From: a phage
Sequence record: PQ374922.1
DNA length: 64,000 nt
Direction: 5' to 3' (one strand)
Both the position numbers and the translations under genes were made by a program. A model generated the notes under the pieces. It saw nothing but the letters and a program-made list of their open reading frames with translations, was not told the DNA's origin and made no database searches. Below are positions 6,473-53,644 of the stretch, piece after piece. Position 1 is the first letter of the stretch, and every line of letters starts with the position of its first letter.

Positions 6473-7023
6473 TCACAGCAGGGCATATCAAAAGCCTGCT
6501 CGAACTCCAAAAGGCCACTAACGTGGCCTACTTTGGGGAAGAGTGGAAGAATGTATGGAGTCAGAACGCAGTCATCAACTCTATCTATCGTGAGTGGGCA
6601 GAGTTCCTTGATGAAACCACCCGTGACTGGAAGGTTTATGGCAACGACATCGGGTTTGATCATACGAACGCAGTTTATGAACTGGTGGACGTGGTACACT
6701 TCATGTTGTGCTTCATCCTTGTGGACCGCACCAAAGGTGAGATCGAAGAAGAATTTGAAGTCCTTAGTAATCGCGAATTCACCCCATCTGCTTTGGGTGT
6801 TGTAGGGCATCGCAATGTTACGTACCGCCTTGGGCAATTCATGAACGATCCTTGCGTTGAGACTCTCATGTTCTTCCTGTCGTCTGCGTGTTCTTATATG
6901 GAGATCGACATTGAGACTTACATACTGGCACACAAACGCAAGAACGATCGCAATCGCCTGCGTGCTGCTGGTGGCGCGGATTACGATAAGTCCGCAGAAA
7001 CCCCTCTGACCCTGGAGTTCTAA
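6469..7023 (+). CDS. All-alpha NTP pyrophosphatase (dCTPase/dUTPase gp56-like or MazG-like)
   Basis: Acidic helical pattern EWAEFLDETTRDW...YELVDVVHF typical of all-alpha NTP-PPases; ATGA overlap with gp1. Confidence 0.5.
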   Translation: MITAGHIKSLLELQKATNVAYFGEEWKNVWSQNAVINSIYREWAEFLDETTRDWKVYGNDIGFDHTNAVYELVDVVHFMLCFILVDRTKGEIEEEFEVLSNREFTPSALGVVGHRNVTYRLGQFMNDPCVETLMFFLSSACSYMEIDIETYILAHKRKNDRNRLRAAGGADYDKSAETPLTLEF

Positions 7024-7565
7024 TGTTTACAGTCGTCGTTTCATACCATGCGGAGAACGCTGCTCAGGCATCCTCCAAATTCGCCGAGCACATCATCGGC
7101 GGCGGACATAATGTATTCCTTACTGAATACAACAGGCCTGTTAAACCGGGCGACGGTCTTTCGGCGACTGTTACGCATAAGATCGCCAGCGAGCAACCAG
7201 AGTCTCTGTTCAGGATGATCGAAGAGTATGCCGGTGGTGGCACCAAGATACCAGATGAACTGGTAGACGTCTATTTTGAAGGCTCGATCTATTACATCCA
7301 CGCTATGCCAAAGGATGTAACCATTGAACAGATGATGTATATCCTGAATATAGCACTGAACACTGCGTGCATCAACCGCACGAACTACAACAATCTGCGC
7401 AATATGTACCTAACCGACCGGCATAATGACGCATCGTCGCTTGTTGAGACAATGTCCCTGAAGAGCATCCAAGAGGCGGTTAACATTTTGTCCCAGAAGG
7501 TTATGGGTGTAGAATTATTAACGACGATCAACAATAAAGAGGAAGTGAAATGGCCAGTTCATTAA
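7023..7565 (+). CDS. Hypothetical protein (180 aa)
   Basis: ORF translationally coupled (TAATG) to the upstream gene; no motif recognised. Confidence 0.5.
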   Translation: MFTVVVSYHAENAAQASSKFAEHIIGGGHNVFLTEYNRPVKPGDGLSATVTHKIASEQPESLFRMIEEYAGGGTKIPDELVDVYFEGSIYYIHAMPKDVTIEQMMYILNIALNTACINRTNYNNLRNMYLTDRHNDASSLVETMSLKSIQEAVNILSQKVMGVELLTTINNKEEVKWPVH

Positions 7566-8635
7566 TGGACCGCATGCTGAAGGTTGCTAAGAAACACGAT
7601 GACCAGGCTTCAGTGCTGTCCAAATCCGACGCTCTGGAACCGTCTATCATCTGTTCTACTGGTATTCCCCTGATCGATATCGCATGGTCTGGGCGTATTG
7701 ACGGCGGTCTGATCTCCGGTATCAAGATGATGGTGGGTGATTCCCGTACCTTCAAAACGATGTTCGGTCTGGTAGACGTCAAGGCGTACATGGACAAGTT
7801 CCCTGATGCTATCTGCGTCTTTGCGGACTCAGAAAAGGGTGCCAACGCCGATTACTGGACCTCTATGGGCATTGACATGGACCGCGTCCTGTACGTACCG
7901 ATCGACAACGTTGAACAGACCAAGATCCGCTTGCTGCAGATCCTACAGGAAGTCAAGAAAGGCGACCATGTTATAATCTTCATCGACTCTATCAGCCAAC
8001 TTCCCTCCACCAAGGAAGTTGAAGATGCGATCAAAGGGAACGACACTCAAGACATGACCCGCGCCCGTGCCCTTAACAGCTTCTGGCGTGTCATGACTCC
8101 CGAAATCAACAGCAAAAATCTCGTGTGTGTTTGGATCAACTCCTATTACGATGAGATCGGCAACCAGTATGCCGAGCCCAACATCAAAGGCGGCAAGCAG
8201 GGCTTCTTATCCTCCAACTTGATCTGGTTTATCACCCGTTCTCAGGTGAAGGAAGACAAAGATCTGCTGGGCTGGAACTTCAACATAAGCATCATGAAAG
8301 GTCGCCATGTCAAAGAGAAAGCCAAGCTCCCTGTGACGGTACTGTACAACGGTGGTATTGATCGCTGGAGCGGCCTGCTTGAGATCGCTCGTGCTCTGGG
8401 TTATGTTGATATGCCGTCTTCCGGTTGGTATGTGCGTACAGCCAAGGGTGGTTTCGATCCTGAGAAGGAAAAGAAATATCAAAAGCGTCAGATGGATGAT
8501 GATTTCTGGTATCCGCTGCTGGAGAATGTCAACTTCGCCGATGACGTGAAGAAAATGTTCGGTGTTTCTAACGGTACTGTTATGCCTGCTAACATGCTGG
8601 AGCAAATGGACCATGTTATCAACACAAGCGAATAA
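7550..8635 (+). CDS. uvsX: UvsX RecA-like recombinase
   Basis: Strong similarity by eye to T4 UvsX: FADSEKGANADYWTSMGIDMDRV, IIFIDSISQL, DMTRARALNSFWRVMTPEI. Confidence 0.9.
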   Translation: MASSLMDRMLKVAKKHDDQASVLSKSDALEPSIICSTGIPLIDIAWSGRIDGGLISGIKMMVGDSRTFKTMFGLVDVKAYMDKFPDAICVFADSEKGANADYWTSMGIDMDRVLYVPIDNVEQTKIRLLQILQEVKKGDHVIIFIDSISQLPSTKEVEDAIKGNDTQDMTRARALNSFWRVMTPEINSKNLVCVWINSYYDEIGNQYAEPNIKGGKQGFLSSNLIWFITRSQVKEDKDLLGWNFNISIMKGRHVKEKAKLPVTVLYNGGIDRWSGLLEIARALGYVDMPSSGWYVRTAKGGFDPEKEKKYQKRQMDDDFWYPLLENVNFADDVKKMFGVSNGTVMPANMLEQMDHVINTSE

Positions 8636-8942
8636 CAGTGGAGGGGGAGGAGACTCCCCCAATAACTACACAATCATCGACCCTGGTGCTGATCAGCTGG
8701 CGATCATCAAGATCACTTCTGGCAAATTCCGTGGTGTTCAATTCCGGTTCGGCAAGGTGGCCATCAACGAAGTGGACGGCGAACCCCGCCTGTCTTTCGT
8801 GACTGATATATTGAAGAAACCATTGCGTCTGATGTTTGTGAATTTGAAAGAAAATGACTTGTTCACTGAGGTGTCAGGGGATATCCTTGTAGAACTCATG
8901 CAGCGTAATGCTCAGGAATATAATAAATTTTTGGTGGGATGA
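8562..8942 (+). CDS. Hypothetical protein overlapping the 3' end of uvsX (occupies the gp40 position)
   Basis: ORF in an alternative frame beginning 74 nt inside uvsX; hydrophobic N-terminus MFLTVLLCLLTCW. An in-frame GTG further downstream could be the true start. Confidence 0.35.
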   Translation: MFLTVLLCLLTCWSKWTMLSTQANNSGGGGDSPNNYTIIDPGADQLAIIKITSGKFRGVQFRFGKVAINEVDGEPRLSFVTDILKKPLRLMFVNLKENDLFTEVSGDILVELMQRNAQEYNKFLVG

Positions 8943-8954
8943 CCGAGGGGTCCT

Positions 8955-9437
8955 ATGTTAACACAACAGTCTCTTAAAGAAATTCTGCATTACGACGAAG
9001 ACACTGGGTGGTTTACATGGCTGACGGATCGTGGTGGTACTGCCAAAGCCGGAACAAGAGCTGGGTCTTTAAAACCTGACGGATACAGGGTTATAAGAAT
9101 CGGCGAGAAGAAGCATTTAGAACACAGGTTGGCATTTCTCTATAAAACTGGTTCATGGCCAAAGAAATTGGTCGACCACAAAAATCGTATAAGAGACGAC
9201 AACCGCTGGTTGAACCTTAGAGAATCTAATGAAAGCCAGAATGCCGTCAACACAGATTTGTATAGCCACAACACCACAGGCGCGAGGGGTGTATTTCGAT
9301 ACAAGAATAGATGGTGTGTGCAAATCAGAGTTAATGGGAAATATAGATCGTTTGGGTATTACGATGAATTCGAAGAAGCAAAGGAAATGGCGAACAAAGC
9401 CTACAAAGAATTGTTCGGAGAATTTTATCAAGGTTAG
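8955..9437 (+). CDS. HNH homing endonuclease with AP2-like DNA-binding domain
   Basis: GYRVIRIGEKKHLEHRLAFLY...VDHKNRIRDDNRWLNLRE (HNH) and GVFRYKNRWCVQIRVNGKYRSFGYYDEFEEA (AP2-like); inserted between the uvsX block and gene 41. Confidence 0.85.
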   Translation: MLTQQSLKEILHYDEDTGWFTWLTDRGGTAKAGTRAGSLKPDGYRVIRIGEKKHLEHRLAFLYKTGSWPKKLVDHKNRIRDDNRWLNLRESNESQNAVNTDLYSHNTTGARGVFRYKNRWCVQIRVNGKYRSFGYYDEFEEAKEMANKAYKELFGEFYQG

Positions 9438-9477
9438 TGTTTGGTCTCTGTCAAACCAGATAATTTAGGAACGCAAT

Positions 9478-10902
9478 ATGTTACTCGAATCTGTCGTGCT
9501 TTCACAGTTGATTTACAATGAAGATTACCAAAGAAAGATCCTGCCGTACCTGAAAGCCGATTATTTTGACAACGAAGGCGAAAAGGTCATCTTTGGTCTG
9601 ATTGACAGTTATACCTCAGAGTACAATGCCCGCCCGTCTGTCGAAGCACTATCTATAATTCTTGAACGGACAAAGCTGAACGAATATGTGTTTGACCAGG
9701 CGGTATCTGCCCTGGAGAACATCAACGACAACACCTTCAATGAAGAGTGGCTGGCGAAGGAAACCGAGGCTTGGGCGCGGCAAAAGGCCGTACACAACGC
9801 AATCAAGACCGCCGTTAACATCTACGGTGACGAGAAGCGCAAGGACGAGATGAACAACATCCCGACCATGTTGCAGGAAGCCCTGGCGATCCGGTTTGAT
9901 TCATACCTCGGTCACATCTATTGGGAGATGGCGGCAGAGCAGTATGACCACATGAACTCCAACGAGGCCAAGATCCCGTTCGCAGTTGAGATATTCAATA
10001 AGGCGACACGTGGTGGCGTTGGTAAGAAGACACTGAACATCGTAACAGGTGCGATCAACGCAGGTAAGACCACAACGCTGATTGACCTGACCGCAGGGTA
10101 CTCTGAGCAGGGGCTGAACGTCTTTGTCTTCACCCTTGAAGTGGCTGAGAACGTCTGGCGACACCGTCTTGATGCCCGTATCATGCGTCGCGACTTTGAG
10201 TCTTTAGAGAAACTCACAAGGCACGAGTATATTGCAACGATAGAGAAGCTCCGCAGTCGCCAAGATGGTGCGCCCAAGGGTGATATCGTCATCAAGGAAT
10301 ATCCTTCCGGTACTGGACACACAGGTTTATTCCGCCGCGATATCCTTGAGTACATCCAGGCAACTGGTCGTGCTCCTGATGTTATCGTTATTGACTATCT
10401 TGGCGAAGCTGCTTCCTCGCGCCTGCCTGCCCACCTGATGCAGAACACGAACGTCTATTACACGTCTGTGGCTCGTGAGTTTCGTGCGCTGGGATTTGAG
10501 TTTGATGTCCCTGTATGGACTGGTATGCAGTTCAATCGTGAGAATCAGAATAGCACTGATGGTGGAATCAGTGATTTGGCAGATGCTATCGGTATTCCGA
10601 AGGTGGCCGACTTCATCATGGCATTCTATGCTCCTGACGAACTGGCGGCGGTCAAGAAAGCCCGAGCCTCAATACTCAAGAACCGTTATGCCAACAAGCA
10701 GAAGCTGAAATCATTCCTGTTTGGTATGGACCAAGACAAACAGATCCTGTTTGACCTGGACTGGAATGAAGTTAAGAAGGACCTGACTGAGGCTGAGGCC
10801 AAATATGTCGAAAACGTACACATCAAACATGACCTCAACAAGTCCGGGGCTGCTGTCAGCGATGAGCAGAAAGCCCAAACGGTCAATAATTGGAAATTCT
10901 AG
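9478..10902 (+). CDS. 41: Replicative DNA helicase (gp41, DnaB-like)
   Basis: 474 aa; Walker A GAINAGKTTT; DnaB-like architecture; synteny with uvsX. Confidence 0.9.
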   Translation: MLLESVVLSQLIYNEDYQRKILPYLKADYFDNEGEKVIFGLIDSYTSEYNARPSVEALSIILERTKLNEYVFDQAVSALENINDNTFNEEWLAKETEAWARQKAVHNAIKTAVNIYGDEKRKDEMNNIPTMLQEALAIRFDSYLGHIYWEMAAEQYDHMNSNEAKIPFAVEIFNKATRGGVGKKTLNIVTGAINAGKTTTLIDLTAGYSEQGLNVFVFTLEVAENVWRHRLDARIMRRDFESLEKLTRHEYIATIEKLRSRQDGAPKGDIVIKEYPSGTGHTGLFRRDILEYIQATGRAPDVIVIDYLGEAASSRLPAHLMQNTNVYYTSVAREFRALGFEFDVPVWTGMQFNRENQNSTDGGISDLADAIGIPKVADFIMAFYAPDELAAVKKARASILKNRYANKQKLKSFLFGMDQDKQILFDLDWNEVKKDLTEAEAKYVENVHIKHDLNKSGAAVSDEQKAQTVNNWKF

Positions 10903-10906
10903 GCAA

Positions 10907-10943
10907 TTCAATAAGGCGGGTCATAGGGTATAATTCTATGATC
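10907..10943 (+). promoter_or_regulatory. Early-promoter stem-loop (TTCAATAA, then hairpin with TATAAT in the loop)
   Basis: TTCAATAA at 10907-10914; hairpin tcatag-ggTATAATt-ctatga at 10921-10941; about 25 nt upstream of the 10967 ATG. Confidence 0.4.
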
Positions 10944-10966
10944 TGAATGTAAACCAGGAGCACATC

Positions 10967-11302
10967 ATGTCACACAATGATTTTATGGCTGGCCTGGTGC
11001 AGGCCGCCAAACAGGTGTGCCACACCAAACAAGCGATTGAGCTGAGTCCGGAGCAGACTCTGGAGTTCTTCAACAATCGTAAAATCTGGGAGGAATATGG
11101 AATTGGTATGATATGCCAAGAGGGTGAACTCGTACAGCTGGATCTACCGTCATTTCCCCTTCCAGTGCGCACCAACACAGTGGAATGGTATACGACGGAA
11201 GATGGTGTAGAGATCATCCCGAAGTTCCAGTATCACTCAATCGTAAACTTCTTTTTACGCCGTTGCGGGACTAATCTGATCCCACGAGGTATGAGATCTT
11301 AA
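10967..11302 (+). CDS. Hypothetical protein (111 aa)
   Basis: ATG with AGGAG RBS. Confidence 0.5.
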   Translation: MSHNDFMAGLVQAAKQVCHTKQAIELSPEQTLEFFNNRKIWEEYGIGMICQEGELVQLDLPSFPLPVRTNTVEWYTTEDGVEIIPKFQYHSIVNFFLRRCGTNLIPRGMRS

Positions 11303-11317
11303 CAAGAGGAACACCAA

Positions 11318-11632
11318 ATGTCTGTAGAACAAATCGGCTTTTATGTACTACCATCTGATCCTGAATCCCGTCGCAAGCTGATAGGTGCGATTGAAAACTG
11401 TCGTGCCGCCCAGGTCCGCATCAAGTCGGAACAGACTTTCATTACTGAGACTCTGGCCGAGCTGGCGAAAGACACGGGTATCAAGGCCAGCGATTTGCGC
11501 AAGGTTGTATCCGACCGCGCCAATGGAACTTACCATAAGACGATCGAAACGAGCGAGAAATATCAAGACTTATACGAGTCTCTATTCCCGAACGCCAAGC
11601 CCGATCGAGATCCGAATGCCAGTGGCGAATAA
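11318..11632 (+). CDS. Hypothetical protein (104 aa)
   Basis: ATG with GAGGAA RBS; followed by a strong terminator. Confidence 0.5.
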   Translation: MSVEQIGFYVLPSDPESRRKLIGAIENCRAAQVRIKSEQTFITETLAELAKDTGIKASDLRKVVSDRANGTYHKTIETSEKYQDLYESLFPNAKPDRDPNASGE

Positions 11633-11651
11633 GTCAATCGAACACCAAGAA

Positions 11652-11675
11652 GCCCAGTCAAGTACTGGGCTTTTT
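11652..11675 (+). terminator. Rho-independent terminator
   Basis: gcccagt-caagt-actgggc stem-loop followed by TTTTT. Confidence 0.6.
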
Positions 11676-11759
11676 AACTTCAATAACTTTACTTTCAAGA
11701 AATAATCGCCTAATATTTAATCTGTATTGAAGAGTTACAACTACATCATGAGGCTGGAA

Positions 11760-12953
11760 ATGAACGTCAAAACATTCAATATTCCGATCGACAATGAAGG
11801 GTTGGTAGTTGAGCGACTGAAGAAGCTCGAGCGCACTGCCGAAAGGTTGGGTGTTCCGTTTCCGACTGTGACTTATGGTGAACCCTTCAAAACCCACACC
11901 CGCGACTTCACTGGTGAGATCCTTACTCACTGGTGGAAACCTGTTACTCTCGAAGGCGAAGGCATTGACCGCCCCATCTCTTATGGTGGCTGGAAGATCA
12001 TCGGTCAGTTCAATCACGAATATCCAAAGGTTATTCTTAACCGCCTGTCCGACAACATCAATCCCGACTTCATCCGTCGCTTCGAGGCAGAGAACGTCTC
12101 TTGGTGTCAGCATTGCAATCTAGCCATCCGTCGCAAGAACACATATGTGATTGAAAATGAGGAAACGCACACCCAGATGCTGATTGGTAGCACCTGTATG
12201 CATCATTATGTGCCTCATCAGAAGTCCCTTGACGCGATTATGTCTTACTATCTGGAAATCCAAGAGTTCTTCATGCCAGACGAGGACGACCCAGAGGGTA
12301 TATATCGCGTCCAAAATGAGCGCTTCACCGACACCCACAGTTACCTGCGCGCATGCTTCCAGGTAATGCTGGCAGGCGTGGATATCAAGTCTGAACTGTT
12401 TGACAAAGTACTGGGCTATGTCCGGTCTCACCAGAAACCAAAAGCAGGTTCCGATGAAGAGTATTTCGTAAACAAGGCACACGAATACCGTGAAGATGCC
12501 GAGTCGGAAATGTACCATATGAAGCTCTTCATCAGTGCGCTGTCCGAATCCAATGAGTTCAATGTCCGCCTGAAACGCATGTGTGAACCCGGCTATCACC
12601 TCATCAAGGATAACAACACAGTCCGCTGGGGTGCCAAGAAGTATTACGATTACATCCATCGTCCTCGTACTGACCGCAAGGCGGAGAACAAATGGGTGGG
12701 CGAAGTCGGTGAAATGCTGGAAGTGCAAGTCAGGTTCGACAAGCGCACCTTCCTCTTCTCCAATGAATATGGTGATAGTTACCTGTTTACTTTCAAAACA
12801 GCAGAAGGCAATACAATTACATGGAAGACCTCTTATATGGATACAGAGTTCTTGCAGGGCGATATGATCATCCGTGGTCGTGTCAAAGAACTGACTGAGT
12901 ACAACGGCGTTAAACAAACTCAGGTCACCAGAGCCAAATTGAGGAAATTATGA
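11760..12953 (+). CDS. Hypothetical protein with Cys/His cluster (putative zinc-binding), about 397 aa
   Basis: CQHCNLAIRRKNTYVIENEETHTQMLIGSTCMHH; ATG at 11760 with GAGG RBS (the ORF table allows a TTG at 11727). Sits where gene 61 would be in T4, but no Toprim motif was found. Confidence 0.55.
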   Translation: MNVKTFNIPIDNEGLVVERLKKLERTAERLGVPFPTVTYGEPFKTHTRDFTGEILTHWWKPVTLEGEGIDRPISYGGWKIIGQFNHEYPKVILNRLSDNINPDFIRRFEAENVSWCQHCNLAIRRKNTYVIENEETHTQMLIGSTCMHHYVPHQKSLDAIMSYYLEIQEFFMPDEDDPEGIYRVQNERFTDTHSYLRACFQVMLAGVDIKSELFDKVLGYVRSHQKPKAGSDEEYFVNKAHEYREDAESEMYHMKLFISALSESNEFNVRLKRMCEPGYHLIKDNNTVRWGAKKYYDYIHRPRTDRKAENKWVGEVGEMLEVQVRFDKRTFLFSNEYGDSYLFTFKTAEGNTITWKTSYMDTEFLQGDMIIRGRVKELTEYNGVKQTQVTRAKLRKL

Positions 12954-35445: not shown

Positions 35446-35719
35446 GTTCGGTTCTCCTATAGACTGTTACGTATTTACCACAGCAATTACAGCAGTACAC
35501 GTGCATTGCGTAACCATCATCTGTGAAATCACATCCACCACAGCGACAGAACAATTTCACGAACTGGTCACCATGCACTTCACGGGGTGGGAATTGTTTG
35601 TGTGAGTATTCCCTCATCTCCCCTTCAAACTGGAAGGAGTCTATCAAGAATTTGTCTGTCACACGATGCGAGCCATACGTCTGTCTTGCATATTTGAAGT
35701 AGACATCAGTGGTTAACAT
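35414..35719 (-). CDS. Cys-rich small protein (101 aa)
   Basis: CRCGGCDF...YCCNCCGKY cysteine cluster. Confidence 0.45.
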   Translation of the reverse strand: MLTTDVYFKYARQTYGSHRVTDKFLIDSFQFEGEMREYSHKQFPPREVHGDQFVKLFCRCGGCDFTDDGYAMHVYCCNCCGKYVTVYRRTEHGQETRSQES

Positions 35720-35729
35720 ATCGACCTCA

Positions 35730-35753
35730 AAGAAAAGGAGGCCGGAGCCTCCT
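35730..35753 (-). terminator. Rho-independent terminator downstream of rIIB
   Basis: GGAGGCCGGAGCCTCC hairpin followed on the minus strand by a T-run. Confidence 0.55.
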
Positions 35754-45784: not shown

Positions 45785-45984
45785 TTTGGTTCCTTGAATA
45801 TTTTGTAACCAGCAGCGCCGATAGACATCACCGCGCCAATACAGTACATCACAGTCACGTTCAACTTCTCTGAGGTTGTTAAGTCCAGAGGGGTGAAATG
45901 ATAGGCTAGGGCAGTACACATTGAAACGGCTGCCATAACCAGACCAATGAACAACAGATAATTAGACAACCGTTTCATGATCAC
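45781..45984 (-). CDS. Small membrane protein (67 aa, two TM helices)
   Basis: LLFIGLVMAAVSMCTALAY and VMYCIGAVMSIGAAGY; coupled to neighbours on both sides. Confidence 0.45.
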   Translation of the reverse strand: MIMKRLSNYLLFIGLVMAAVSMCTALAYHFTPLDLTTSEKLNVTVMYCIGAVMSIGAAGYKIFKEPK

Positions 45985-46898
45985 CCCTTCTTCATCAGGT
46001 CAAGGAGAGAGCGCGACGCTGCCTTCGTTGCTTCTGGCTGGGCGCTCGCCTTGGTTTTAGTTTTGGATGCCTTCTGCGGCTTCTCAGGGACTCTGTGCGC
46101 CAAAGGATCATGGCCGCCAACCTCACGAGTCATCGGATTGGTTTCACAGTAGGCGTAGAAGTCTTTGGTGTGTATGTCAACACCACGCAGTTCAGAGCGT
46201 ATCTGATGACAAATCGCATTACCCACAACCCACAGCGGGGCGTCGAACGGTAGTACCGCCAACTCGGACTGCTGTTTGGTCGTGAACTCCTGGGTGTTGG
46301 CATCCGGTGATTTATACAGGATATCCTGTCCGCTGTAATCATCAACAGCCACAGTGAAGCCCAGCGCCAGCATTTCGGCCTTCGACTTCTCAAACTCCTT
46401 GTAGTAAGATTCGTTGCGCGACCAGCCGGAGTTCCCTGCTTCTTTACCAGATCGACCACGGATACGAGCATCGTACTGATAGCGGTCGGGGTACGCAAAG
46501 TACAGCAGCGCCAATGATTCAATCGGATAGTTCTTGAACATCCATTCAGGACGCCATTTGTCCGACAGCATGAGAGGTTCGCCCTCGCACACCAGAGTGT
46601 ATCCCTGAACCAACCAGCACTTGATTAGATCACGAGCAATATCGCCTGAGCCTGTAGCAGCATGGATTGCATCCATTGAAGTCCAGGAAGCCAGGCCGGA
46701 TTTGTTAGACACGGTGTACTGTCCAACGAAGATTAACTTCAGCTCTCCGAACTTCAAGCCAAACGGGCGAGTCTTGTCACCAACGGTGTAGGTCAGTTCG
46801 GTAGGCTCCAGCTTCGTACGGAGCCATTCGATGAACTGGACCACTCTCGTACCCTTGCCCGTGGCCGAGGTGCCTTTCACTACAATTATTTTAGCCAT
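45981..46898 (-). CDS. P-loop kinase-like protein (305 aa) with Lys/Ala/Thr-rich C-terminal tail
   Basis: N-terminal Walker A VKGTSATGKGT; no HAD DxDGT motif, so not a T4 Pnkp-type bifunctional enzyme. Confidence 0.6.
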   Translation of the reverse strand: MAKIIVVKGTSATGKGTRVVQFIEWLRTKLEPTELTYTVGDKTRPFGLKFGELKLIFVGQYTVSNKSGLASWTSMDAIHAATGSGDIARDLIKCWLVQGYTLVCEGEPLMLSDKWRPEWMFKNYPIESLALLYFAYPDRYQYDARIRGRSGKEAGNSGWSRNESYYKEFEKSKAEMLALGFTVAVDDYSGQDILYKSPDANTQEFTTKQQSELAVLPFDAPLWVVGNAICHQIRSELRGVDIHTKDFYAYCETNPMTREVGGHDPLAHRVPEKPQKASKTKTKASAQPEATKAASRSLLDLMKKG

Positions 46899-47577
46899 TT
46901 AATATTCTCCAACCGAGACATGTTTTAGCCCTACCTTTCAAGAGATTCGTTATATTACCGGAAGGGAGGCCATATTGAAGTTCCATGTCGCACCTCCTTA
47001 ACTCAACGATGCGACCATCTTTGTGCTGCCATTTGTAAATCTTTTCATCGCGACCAGGACCAATGTCTATCAGACCAAGAGCATGCAGCCTCTTCCTAGT
47101 TTCCCCTCCACGCGTTTGAGATTCAGAGGAAGGTCTTGGTGGTTTGGGGATCTTCCCTTCTGACATCAATTTGCTTATGATCTTACCCTTTCTGGCTTGT
47201 GCTTCAGGGGTGAGTCTTGGTGGAGGTTTAATCTTACCTTCAGCGATCAAACGTTTGCGGGTTGCGGCGCTCTTTGCGGATGACTCTGGCGTGGCCAATG
47301 GAGGCTTTCCACCCCCGACGACCATGTTGTAGCACCACCCAGAGTCAAGGATCTCCTGGCAGACCAGTTCAGACTCTATCTGAAGGATAACCGAATCTTT
47401 CCCTCGGAACAGAACTTCAAACTTGAACTGGTCTTCACCGTATTTCTTGAACGCTCGTTGTAATGCAATGCTTCCCTGACCACACTTATGCTCAGCCAAC
47501 CGCCTATCCGGTTCTGAGGTGACACCGACATAGAATTTATGATTGACGAGATTCGTTATCAGGTAGAGCGATAGCAT
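46891..47577 (-). CDS. GIY-YIG homing endonuclease (Seg-like)
   Basis: YLITNLVNHKFYVGVTSEPDRRLAEHK...FKKYGEDQFKFEVL (GIY-YIG); C-terminal repeated GKIKPPPRLTPE / GKIPKPPRPSSE DNA-binding-like modules. Confidence 0.85.
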   Translation of the reverse strand: MLSLYLITNLVNHKFYVGVTSEPDRRLAEHKCGQGSIALQRAFKKYGEDQFKFEVLFRGKDSVILQIESELVCQEILDSGWCYNMVVGGGKPPLATPESSAKSAATRKRLIAEGKIKPPPRLTPEAQARKGKIISKLMSEGKIPKPPRPSSESQTRGGETRKRLHALGLIDIGPGRDEKIYKWQHKDGRIVELRRCDMELQYGLPSGNITNLLKGRAKTCLGWRILNG

Positions 47578-53073: not shown

Positions 53074-53631
53074 ATGGCAATCGAAATTATCGCTCAATCC
53101 AAATCTGGTAAAACTGTAATGTACGGCACTGAAGAAGGCCGCGCAATCACCACTCTGGGTACAATTGACGGTTCCAACCCAGTGAAAGGCGGTCGCTACC
53201 TGGTTGAATACGGTTCACACCTGCTGATGGTAAGCAAAGTCGATGGTCGTGAAATCATGATTCCCCGCAAAGAGTACTTCGACTCGCGCATTGAAGCCAT
53301 GAACTTCTTCCTTTTCCAGGAACGTCACGAACTGTTCGTTGAAGCGAAAGACGCAGGCCTGGACGATGCGACTGCCGAACTGATCGCTGAAGGTAAAATG
53401 ACTCTTGAGGCTGCTCTGGGTGACATGGATTGCGATGCTGAAGCCCATTACATCGAATATTCCGCTTATCAGAATGAATGCGAAGACGATCCTGAAGATG
53501 ACGGCTTCGACCCTGACCTTCACGGGGGCGAGGATGACAATACTCCTTCCCTGGAAGTGATCATGGCAGGCGGTCAGGCCGCTTGGGAGTGGCAGAACGA
53601 AAAGAACGCCTGGCTGGATTCCCACCTTTAA
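53074..53631 (+). CDS. Hypothetical acidic protein (about 185 aa)
   Basis: ATG at 53074 with GAAGGAAAT RBS. Confidence 0.5.
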   Translation: MAIEIIAQSKSGKTVMYGTEEGRAITTLGTIDGSNPVKGGRYLVEYGSHLLMVSKVDGREIMIPRKEYFDSRIEAMNFFLFQERHELFVEAKDAGLDDATAELIAEGKMTLEAALGDMDCDAEAHYIEYSAYQNECEDDPEDDGFDPDLHGGEDDNTPSLEVIMAGGQAAWEWQNEKNAWLDSHL

Positions 53632-53644
53632 TGTGAAGAAATAA

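Follow-up and report, generated by a model that had tools for sequence, protein, structure and literature searches.

What is a small HNH nuclease gene doing among the recombination and replication genes of a coliphage, and how recently did it arrive there? The question is raised by a 64,000-nt stretch of phage DNA (sequence record PQ374922.1, the whole of which is termed the window here), in which a preliminary description had placed an HNH-AP2 endonuclease at positions 8955-9437. The window is that of an Ackermannviridae (ViI-like) coliphage of the Aglimvirinae/Agtrevirus type; in its first 25 kb the identity to Escherichia phage YX22 is 99.2%, and that to nine other GenBank relatives 97-98.6%. 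The gene in question is, with high probability, a free-standing (intron-less) HNH-AP2 homing endonuclease gene carried in a 535-nt cassette by this Agtrevirus-like Ackermannviridae coliphage.

The ORF list and the sequence agree on an intact ORF of 160 aa, from ATG to TAG, which shares its direction of transcription with uvsX and the helicase gene. The genes of the region are as follows.

7023-7565, plus strand: ACT-like gene, the gene upstream of uvsX
7550-8635, plus strand: uvsX, RecA-like recombinase (RecA and T4_UVSX_C matches), the co-directional upstream neighbour
8613-8942, plus strand: conserved 109-aa ORF, phrog_3998 (PHROGs), upstream of the insertion
8955-9437, plus strand: ORF of the probable HNH-AP2 homing endonuclease (160 aa)
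9478-10902, plus strand: gp41/DnaB-like replicative helicase (Pfam, PHROGs), the downstream neighbour

Two small conserved ORFs come after the helicase gene on the same strand. The early identification is borne out by an ORF with the same coordinates and by matches to HNH_3, AP2 and phrog_99, and the position then given, between the uvsX block and the helicase gene, holds with one refinement: the 109-aa ORF intervenes, so that the HNH gene is not directly adjacent to uvsX, and the insertion point is the 6-nt spacer between the 109-aa ORF and the helicase gene. A scan of 7000-11800 for promoters and terminators returned no more sites than were found in shuffled sequence, and none around the cassette; as the gene has no such signals of its own and is co-directional with uvsX and the helicase gene, it is probably co-transcribed with both. 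It has no paralogue elsewhere in the window. An Rfam search of 8400-9900 at E <= 1 gave no match and no group I intron, and the gene, which has a Shine-Dalgarno sequence of its own, is flanked by two complete genes, in agreement with its having been called free-standing.

The product has the make-up of a two-domain endonuclease. Pfam HNH_3 matches residues 57-98 (E 9.5e-13; 48 bits, above the cut-off of 24.8) and Pfam AP2 matches residues 109-155 (E 2.2e-5; 25.1 bits, below the cut-off of 33.3), while in PHROGs the protein falls to phrog_99, 'HNH endonuclease' (E 5.6e-64). A protein database search yielded only 16 homologues, among which G43, Y44, A60, D74, H75, N77, D82, N83, N87, L88 and R89 are invariant, and their alignment was used as a profile. 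A search of PDB sequences with the single sequence found nothing relevant and the 16-sequence profile was required; it matches the structure of I-HmuI (1U3E, E 3.2e-7) in an alignment that begins at I-HmuI residue 23 and places D74, H75, N83, N87 and N96 on the same-numbered residues of that enzyme. In the profile search the C-terminal third leads to plant AP2/ERF structures (WRI1, E 7e-9; TEM1, E 7e-5), which strengthens the AP2 assignment. In the AlphaFold model (mean pLDDT 87) the N-terminus is rich in sheet, the core is beta-beta-alpha and the C-terminal domain has three strands and a helix, residues 100-110 forming a weak linker; the protein thus combines the beta-beta-alpha-metal fold of the HNH_3/I-HmuI type with the C-terminal AP2 domain of HNH-AP2 homing endonucleases. 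The protein is divided in this way.

8955-9119, plus strand: N-terminal beta-strand region, residues 1-55 (model strands 11-14, 19-22, 45-49 and 52-55), equivalent to the N-terminal DNA-contacting part of I-HmuI
9120-9248, plus strand: beta-beta-alpha-metal HNH core, residues 56-98, with D74, H75, N83, N87 and N96 (Pfam HNH_3)
9279-9425, plus strand: AP2 DNA-binding domain, residues 109-157, three strands plus helix

A loss of the catalytic residues, which the preliminary description had named as one of two findings that would speak against its reading, is not seen: D74-H75, N87 and N96 correspond one-to-one with I-HmuI, and from the I-HmuI literature these are presumably an Asp-His general base pair, a structural Asn and a metal-binding Asn. 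A small I-HmuI-like enzyme, consisting of a DNA-contacting sheet, an HNH site, a flexible linker and an AP2 domain, is supported. A packaging-module HNH protein of the HK97 gp74 type, defined by a place beside the terminase and the cos site and by conservation in all relatives, was considered and rejected, the gene being located between the uvsX-side ORF and the helicase gene and absent from ~89% of relatives.

The comparison with insert-free relatives that had been proposed at the outset gives a clear picture of the cassette. All ten of the closest GenBank relatives are without it, their uvsX-helicase region aligning in two pieces with the HNH region missing, and against LHE287 and YX22 the difference is a net insertion of 529 nt with flanks 99.6-100% identical. 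The net gain is the same in Agtrevirus and Kuttervirus, the Kuttervirus pair Maynard/UTK0005 displaying an equally clean insertion, and within the whole window the cassette is the only clean insertion relative to YX22. The 535 nt between the 109-aa ORF and the helicase gene, and the two halves of the presumed target on either side of them, are made up as follows.

last ~20 nt of 8613-8942, plus strand: left half of the presumed target, TTTTTGGTGGG, from empty-site conservation
8939-8942, plus strand: left junction, with the stop codon of the 109-aa ORF
8943-8954, plus strand: 5' spacer, with the Shine-Dalgarno sequence GAGGGG (8945-8950) of the HNH gene
9438-9477, plus strand: 3' spacer, with AGGAA (9467-9471) as the substitute Shine-Dalgarno sequence of the helicase gene
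9478-9503, plus strand: right half of the presumed target, the first 26 nt of the helicase gene, ATGTTACTCGAATCTGTCGTGCTTTC

The filled site reads GGTGGG(A/G)TGA, 12 nt with the Shine-Dalgarno sequence, the HNH ORF, 40 nt with AGGAA, and ATGTTACTCG; the 5' spacer is conserved in SNUABM02, Maynard and SS9, and the original Shine-Dalgarno sequence of the helicase gene (GGTGGGG) is now 535 nt away. The empty site of the ten closest relatives reads GGTGGGGTAG-TGGCCA-ATGTTACTCG, and that of YX22 and LHE287 contains AAATTTTTGGTGGGGTAGTGGCCAATGTTACTCGAATCTGTCGTGC. Across Agtrevirus, Limestonevirus, Kuttervirus and Taipeivirus the empty site takes the form TTTTGGTGGGGTAG, TTGCCA and ATGTTACTCGAATC, with spacer variants TGGCCA in the clade of the window and GTTGCCA in Limestonevirus phiD3. 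The stop codon of the 109-aa ORF is TGA in all cassette-carrying copies and TAG in all empty sites, and this change is the only flank marker that always accompanies the cassette. No terminal inverted repeats or target duplication are present at the cassette ends, and an insertion sequence or transposon was rejected on that ground. Folding of three variants of the cassette showed that a possible hairpin in the 3' spacer is not conserved, and it was dropped.

The site itself is among the most conserved parts of its surroundings. Among six genomes from four genera that lack the cassette, mean pairwise identity is ~90% over the 150 nt surrounding the junction, compared with ~78% for the 2.9-kb region; the longest invariant run of that region, GCCAATGTTACTCGAATC, lies across the helicase start, and the first 26 nt of the helicase gene are nearly invariant across the four genera. 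Homing endonucleases typically target such conserved sequence.

Evidence that the cassette has spread recently comes from its own lack of diversity. The exact 160-aa protein of the window, which has no NCBI accession, is encoded by at least 20 metagenome contigs, without exception in the same gene context. Six contigs were compared over the whole cassette, with 0 mismatches in 535 nt and flanks 1.0-3.5% different from those of the window; YX22 and LHE287, which lack the cassette, have flanks 0.8-1.0% different from those of the window, no more than the flanks of the six contigs. These contigs were picked by exact protein identity, non-synonymous sites thereby being fixed by construction, and the fair test lies in synonymous and non-coding positions: at third codon positions of the seven backgrounds, 0 of 160 sites segregate in the HNH gene and 96 of 1339 in six flanking genes (Fisher P = 1.3e-5). 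Diversity is back to ~7-14% from ~0.3 kb on either side of the cassette. Together with flanks of near identity in relatives lacking the gene, these values uphold the earlier claim of a recent mobile insertion.

Decaying copies also exist. On metagenome contig SRR31707703_3907 (positions 3001-3204 of L021) the cassette occupies the same site with a W68 nonsense mutation (TGG to TGA) that leaves a 67-aa product and removes both the HNH and the AP2 domain, the rest of the ORF remaining in frame and 98% identical to the window. This lineage is another Agtrevirus-like background, its helicase being 89% identical and its cassette 98% identical to those of the window. A second metagenome contig encodes another 67-aa version (P0025). 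An apparently decayed copy in SS9 (MK972699) was rejected: the annotated protein has 39 aa (L005, 3169-3288) and the 483-nt ORF is intact (L005, 2806-3288), an annotation artefact. The coexistence of empty, intact and decaying alleles, as read from these sequences, is that of the classical homing-endonuclease cycle. The HNH protein has dN/dS values of 0.05-0.28 and is thus under purifying selection.

With respect to a donor like pSal-SNUABM-02, a search of the flanks for a co-conversion tract found none outside the stop codon: the window tracks its cassette-free relatives on the left up to 8921, 18 nt from the junction, and on the right from 9597, no informative sites lie between these two positions, and the first one on the right is 119 nt into the helicase gene, so that the cut position is not deducible. 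The first 300 nt of the helicase gene have a low diversity that is common to cassette-free relatives, and this part of the valley is therefore not specific to the element. In every comparison, including those of cassette-free phages, synonymous divergence at 8613-8942 and 9478-9780 is well below that of uvsX or of the rest of the helicase gene (within Agtrevirus, dS is 0.087 vs 0.5, and nine genomes have 0/300 variable sites); the low dS at the 109-aa ORF and the helicase start may stem from constraint on the initiation of translation or from recurrent gene conversion around the homing site.

Larger exchanges are visible as well. Marshall (L011, 1200-2250) is ~100% identical to Maynard (L003) over a 5.6-kb region with the exception of uvsX, which is 63-74% identical to that of Maynard and partly Det7-like (L009; 88-92%); this is a whole-gene allele swap of uvsX, the right boundary of which is at the junction of uvsX and the 109-aa ORF, ~290 nt upstream of the cassette. 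In SS9, segments resembling Det7 and segments resembling Maynard are patched together. The recombination hotspot that had been predicted at the insertion site is accordingly no more than suggested by the sequences: mosaic breakpoints do lie near the site in Marshall and SS9, but equally sharp boundaries lie ~2 kb upstream, in the dUTPase region, so that no site-specific enrichment can be claimed.

The mosaic structure of the whole region, whether or not the cassette is present, is also what gives some substance to the idea that the cassette is a passive passenger, moved by ordinary homologous recombination and encoding a nuclease that is inactive or serves some other use, for instance against competitor or host DNA. 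The cut site is not marked by any co-conversion tract and a nonsense-mutated copy persists, as this idea would allow. It is nevertheless improbable. That synonymous diversity in the seven backgrounds is nil for the cassette and 7% for the flanks requires a recent sweep, which is unexpected for a neutral element; the dN/dS values, with catalytic residues intact in every full-length copy, speak for selection on nuclease function; and the point of insertion falls precisely within a stretch that ranks among the most conserved of the region, as homing targets do.

The distribution of the cassette bears on whether it was gained or merely retained. A nucleotide search with the 535-nt cassette found 29 phage records and a search with the 86-nt empty junction found 272 Ackermannviridae records, so that the cassette is present in 29 of 272 records having the junction (~11%), always at the same site; universal presence, which would have spoken against a recent insertion, is not what is found. 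The carriers are the Agtrevirus pSal-SNUABM-02 (97.4% identical) and 28 Kuttervirus records, including Maynard, Marshall, SS9, ECML-4 and Sa157lw (86.6-89.2%). Presence is thus sporadic, at one fixed site, with intact empty sites in relatives: the junction is uninterrupted in every sampled cassette-free record, and Kuttervirus phages 99.5-99.7% identical to Maynard in their flanks are without the HNH gene. The synonymous divergence of the cassette follows a course of its own. Between the window and pSal-SNUABM-02, dS is 0.065 for the HNH gene, 0.56 for uvsX and 0.51 for the helicase gene, and within Agtrevirus the cassette is ~8-fold below its flanking genes; between genera, dS is saturated in the flanks (above 2) and 0.85 in the HNH gene. 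SS9 is a Kuttervirus by its flanks, with a helicase dS of 0.33 from Maynard, and its HNH gene is at dS 0.52 from that of the window and 0.82 from that of Maynard. The gap in dS, the incongruence of SS9 and the identical cassettes in diverged backgrounds all decouple the history of the element from that of its flanks.

It would be very improbable, then, that the gene is ancestral to the Ackermannviridae and has been repeatedly deleted, with the window an instance of retention and not of gain. Its occurrence in two subfamilies (Aglimvirinae and Cvivirinae) with the same site and junctions, and the grouping of most copies with the host genus at genus level, fit such a history. However, ~243 empty sites in four genera have one structure (TAG, 6-7 nt, ATG) that independent deletions would not reproduce, the decoupled dS and the position of SS9 run against it, and phages with the empty site are closer to the window in their flanks than are other cassette-carrying contigs. 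It is scarcely credible that the protein has ceased to be a mobile nuclease and has been domesticated as a DNA-binding regulator of the AP2 type, acting for instance on helicase expression: AP2 domains are transcription factors elsewhere and the gene is immediately 5' of the helicase start, but relatives without it, ~89% of the total, replicate normally, the catalytic HNH residues are kept and one long phage contig has a version truncated to 67 aa.

A mobile HNH-AP2 homing endonuclease gene has close counterparts. The orthologue of pSal-SNUABM-02 (QOI58245) is likewise of 160 aa and 96% identical, and those of the Kuttervirus phages Maynard, Marshall, SS9, Sa157lw, ECML-4 and Mutine are 91-93% identical; all share the 535-nt cassette, insertion site and TGA junction with the window, and they differ from it in that the window copy is in an Escherichia coli Agtrevirus-like background whose GenBank relatives are all without the cassette. 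The same-site orthologues of Marshall, SS9 and Sa157lw are already annotated 'HNH homing endonuclease' in GenBank, and the annotation is therefore unchanged by these results. That ViI lacks this ORF has been remarked upon (PMC9686305), and in Agtrevirus homing nucleases are reported to be variable and uncorrelated with phylogeny (PMC10791037).

HNH-AP2 homing endonucleases are described in PMC10448857, citing Magnani et al. 2004, as a recognised family of phages, cyanobacteria and protists. The window protein shares with this family (including the FelixO1-like members and 'IPA-HNH' of ICP1) the architecture of an N-terminal HNH and a C-terminal AP2 domain, and the habit of free-standing phage genes adjoining essential replication genes; copies of Pantoea PdC23 and of FelixO1-like phages are 48-52% identical to it, and the HNH domains of ICP1 IPA-HNH are too divergent for Pfam HNH_3, whereas the window protein matches this profile well. 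I-HmuI of phage SPO1, an HNH_3 nicking homing endonuclease, is alike in that D74, H75, N87 and N96 coincide and in that both enzymes occur in phages with 5-hmdU-derived DNA (SPO1 being a hydroxymethyluracil phage). The I-HmuI gene, in contrast, is located in the DNA polymerase gene, within a group I intron, while that of the window is free-standing, and I-HmuI has C-terminal helices and a helix-turn-helix domain where the window protein has an AP2 domain. I-HmuI-type enzymes nick their substrate (PMC3428280). MobE of T4 is a free-standing HNH enzyme encoded between nrdA and nrdB by a promoterless gene, and it homes after a strand-specific nick (PMC2790892). The window gene resembles it in lacking a promoter, in its predicted co-transcription with the upstream gene and in its place between two conserved DNA-metabolism genes; the Mob-class T4 enzymes, MobE included, have a zinc-finger DNA-binding module (PMC10448857) in place of AP2. 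By analogy, MobE is the best functional model for the window gene. To judge from sequence comparison, a known element is seen here in a genomic background that is new for it, and the comparative evidence that it has spread recently is unusually clear.

A course of homing can be proposed, of which the opening step, transcription, and the closing one, the splitting of the site, rest on the sequences, whereas binding, cleavage and repair are inferred from the I-HmuI and MobE precedents. The HNH gene would be transcribed with the replication and recombination genes. In a mixed infection the enzyme would recognise the conserved empty site, approximately TTTTGGTGGGGTAG-TTGCCA-ATGTTACTCGAATC, and would use its N-terminal sheet and its AP2 domain to bind there; as AP2 domains prefer GC-rich sequence (PMC10448857), the GGTGGGG run next to the junction is a plausible contact for that domain and is offered as a lead. 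The HNH site may nick the DNA in the manner of I-HmuI and T4 MobE or may cut both strands. Repair of the break by UvsX-dependent phage recombination, with the filled co-infecting genome as template, would then copy the cassette, presumably with very short co-conversion tracts. As the insertion splits the site, filled alleles would be immune, and the new ribosome-binding site brought by the cassette would keep the helicase gene expressed.

In vivo, such an enzyme would have to tolerate partly hypermodified thymidines. The window encodes a 5-hmdU DNA kinase, and in Ackermannviridae ~40% of thymidine is replaced by 5-NeOmdU, a modification that makes DNA resistant to most commercial endonucleases (PMC11721090). 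It may tentatively be suggested, as a possibility on the doubtful side, that a drive sweep is ongoing in natural Agtrevirus-like coliphages and that the enzyme has adapted to cut DNA with ~40% 5-NeOmdU; the basis for the sweep is the identical cassette in backgrounds up to 3.5% diverged and the joint occurrence of empty, filled and decaying alleles. If true, this would allow homing dynamics to be measured in a tractable system from nature, and would provide a nuclease or nickase with tolerance of hypermodified DNA.

The locus has uses that do not depend on this suggestion. A whole homing-endonuclease life cycle is found at one locus, which could serve studies of homing in phages with hypermodified DNA, and the predicted target is short, extremely conserved and across the helicase start, making the enzyme easy to test. 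The cassette also flags Agtrevirus and Kuttervirus genomes with recent DNA exchange around the uvsX-helicase module, a point to consider in comparing such phages or in making up cocktails of them.

A second homing-endonuclease site is present in the window at 45981-47577 on the minus strand, where a GIY-YIG protein gene and a 5-hmdU DNA kinase 2 gene adjoin.

45981-46898, minus strand: 5-hmdU DNA kinase 2 (PF18747, E 3e-157), its start overlapped by 8 nt by the GIY-YIG gene
46891-47577, minus strand: 228-aa GIY-YIG protein (Pfam E 5.6e-8), with K/R-P-rich NUMOD3-like repeats

In the same place YX22 has one annotated ORF of 532 aa, which joins the kinase to a GIY-YIG-like N-terminus unlike that of the window (29% identical), and next to it ~790 nt of the kinase gene have also lost their megablast match to YX22 (window 46107-47566). 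It appears that one endonuclease gene has here been exchanged for another as an allele, together with a co-converted flank. Apart from the two endonuclease sites, megablast matches to YX22 are missing from the window only at 53083-53637, with 555 nt vs ~890 nt in YX22 and a 214-aa ORF lacking a Pfam match, and at 35640-35731, a 92-nt gap relative to YX22. In Dickeya phage phiD3 (L008, 5375-5659), an endonuclease-type ORF with a NUMOD3 motif lies two genes downstream of the helicase gene, flanked by homologues of phrog_639 and phrog_2319, where the window has a 94-nt spacer (11633-11726).
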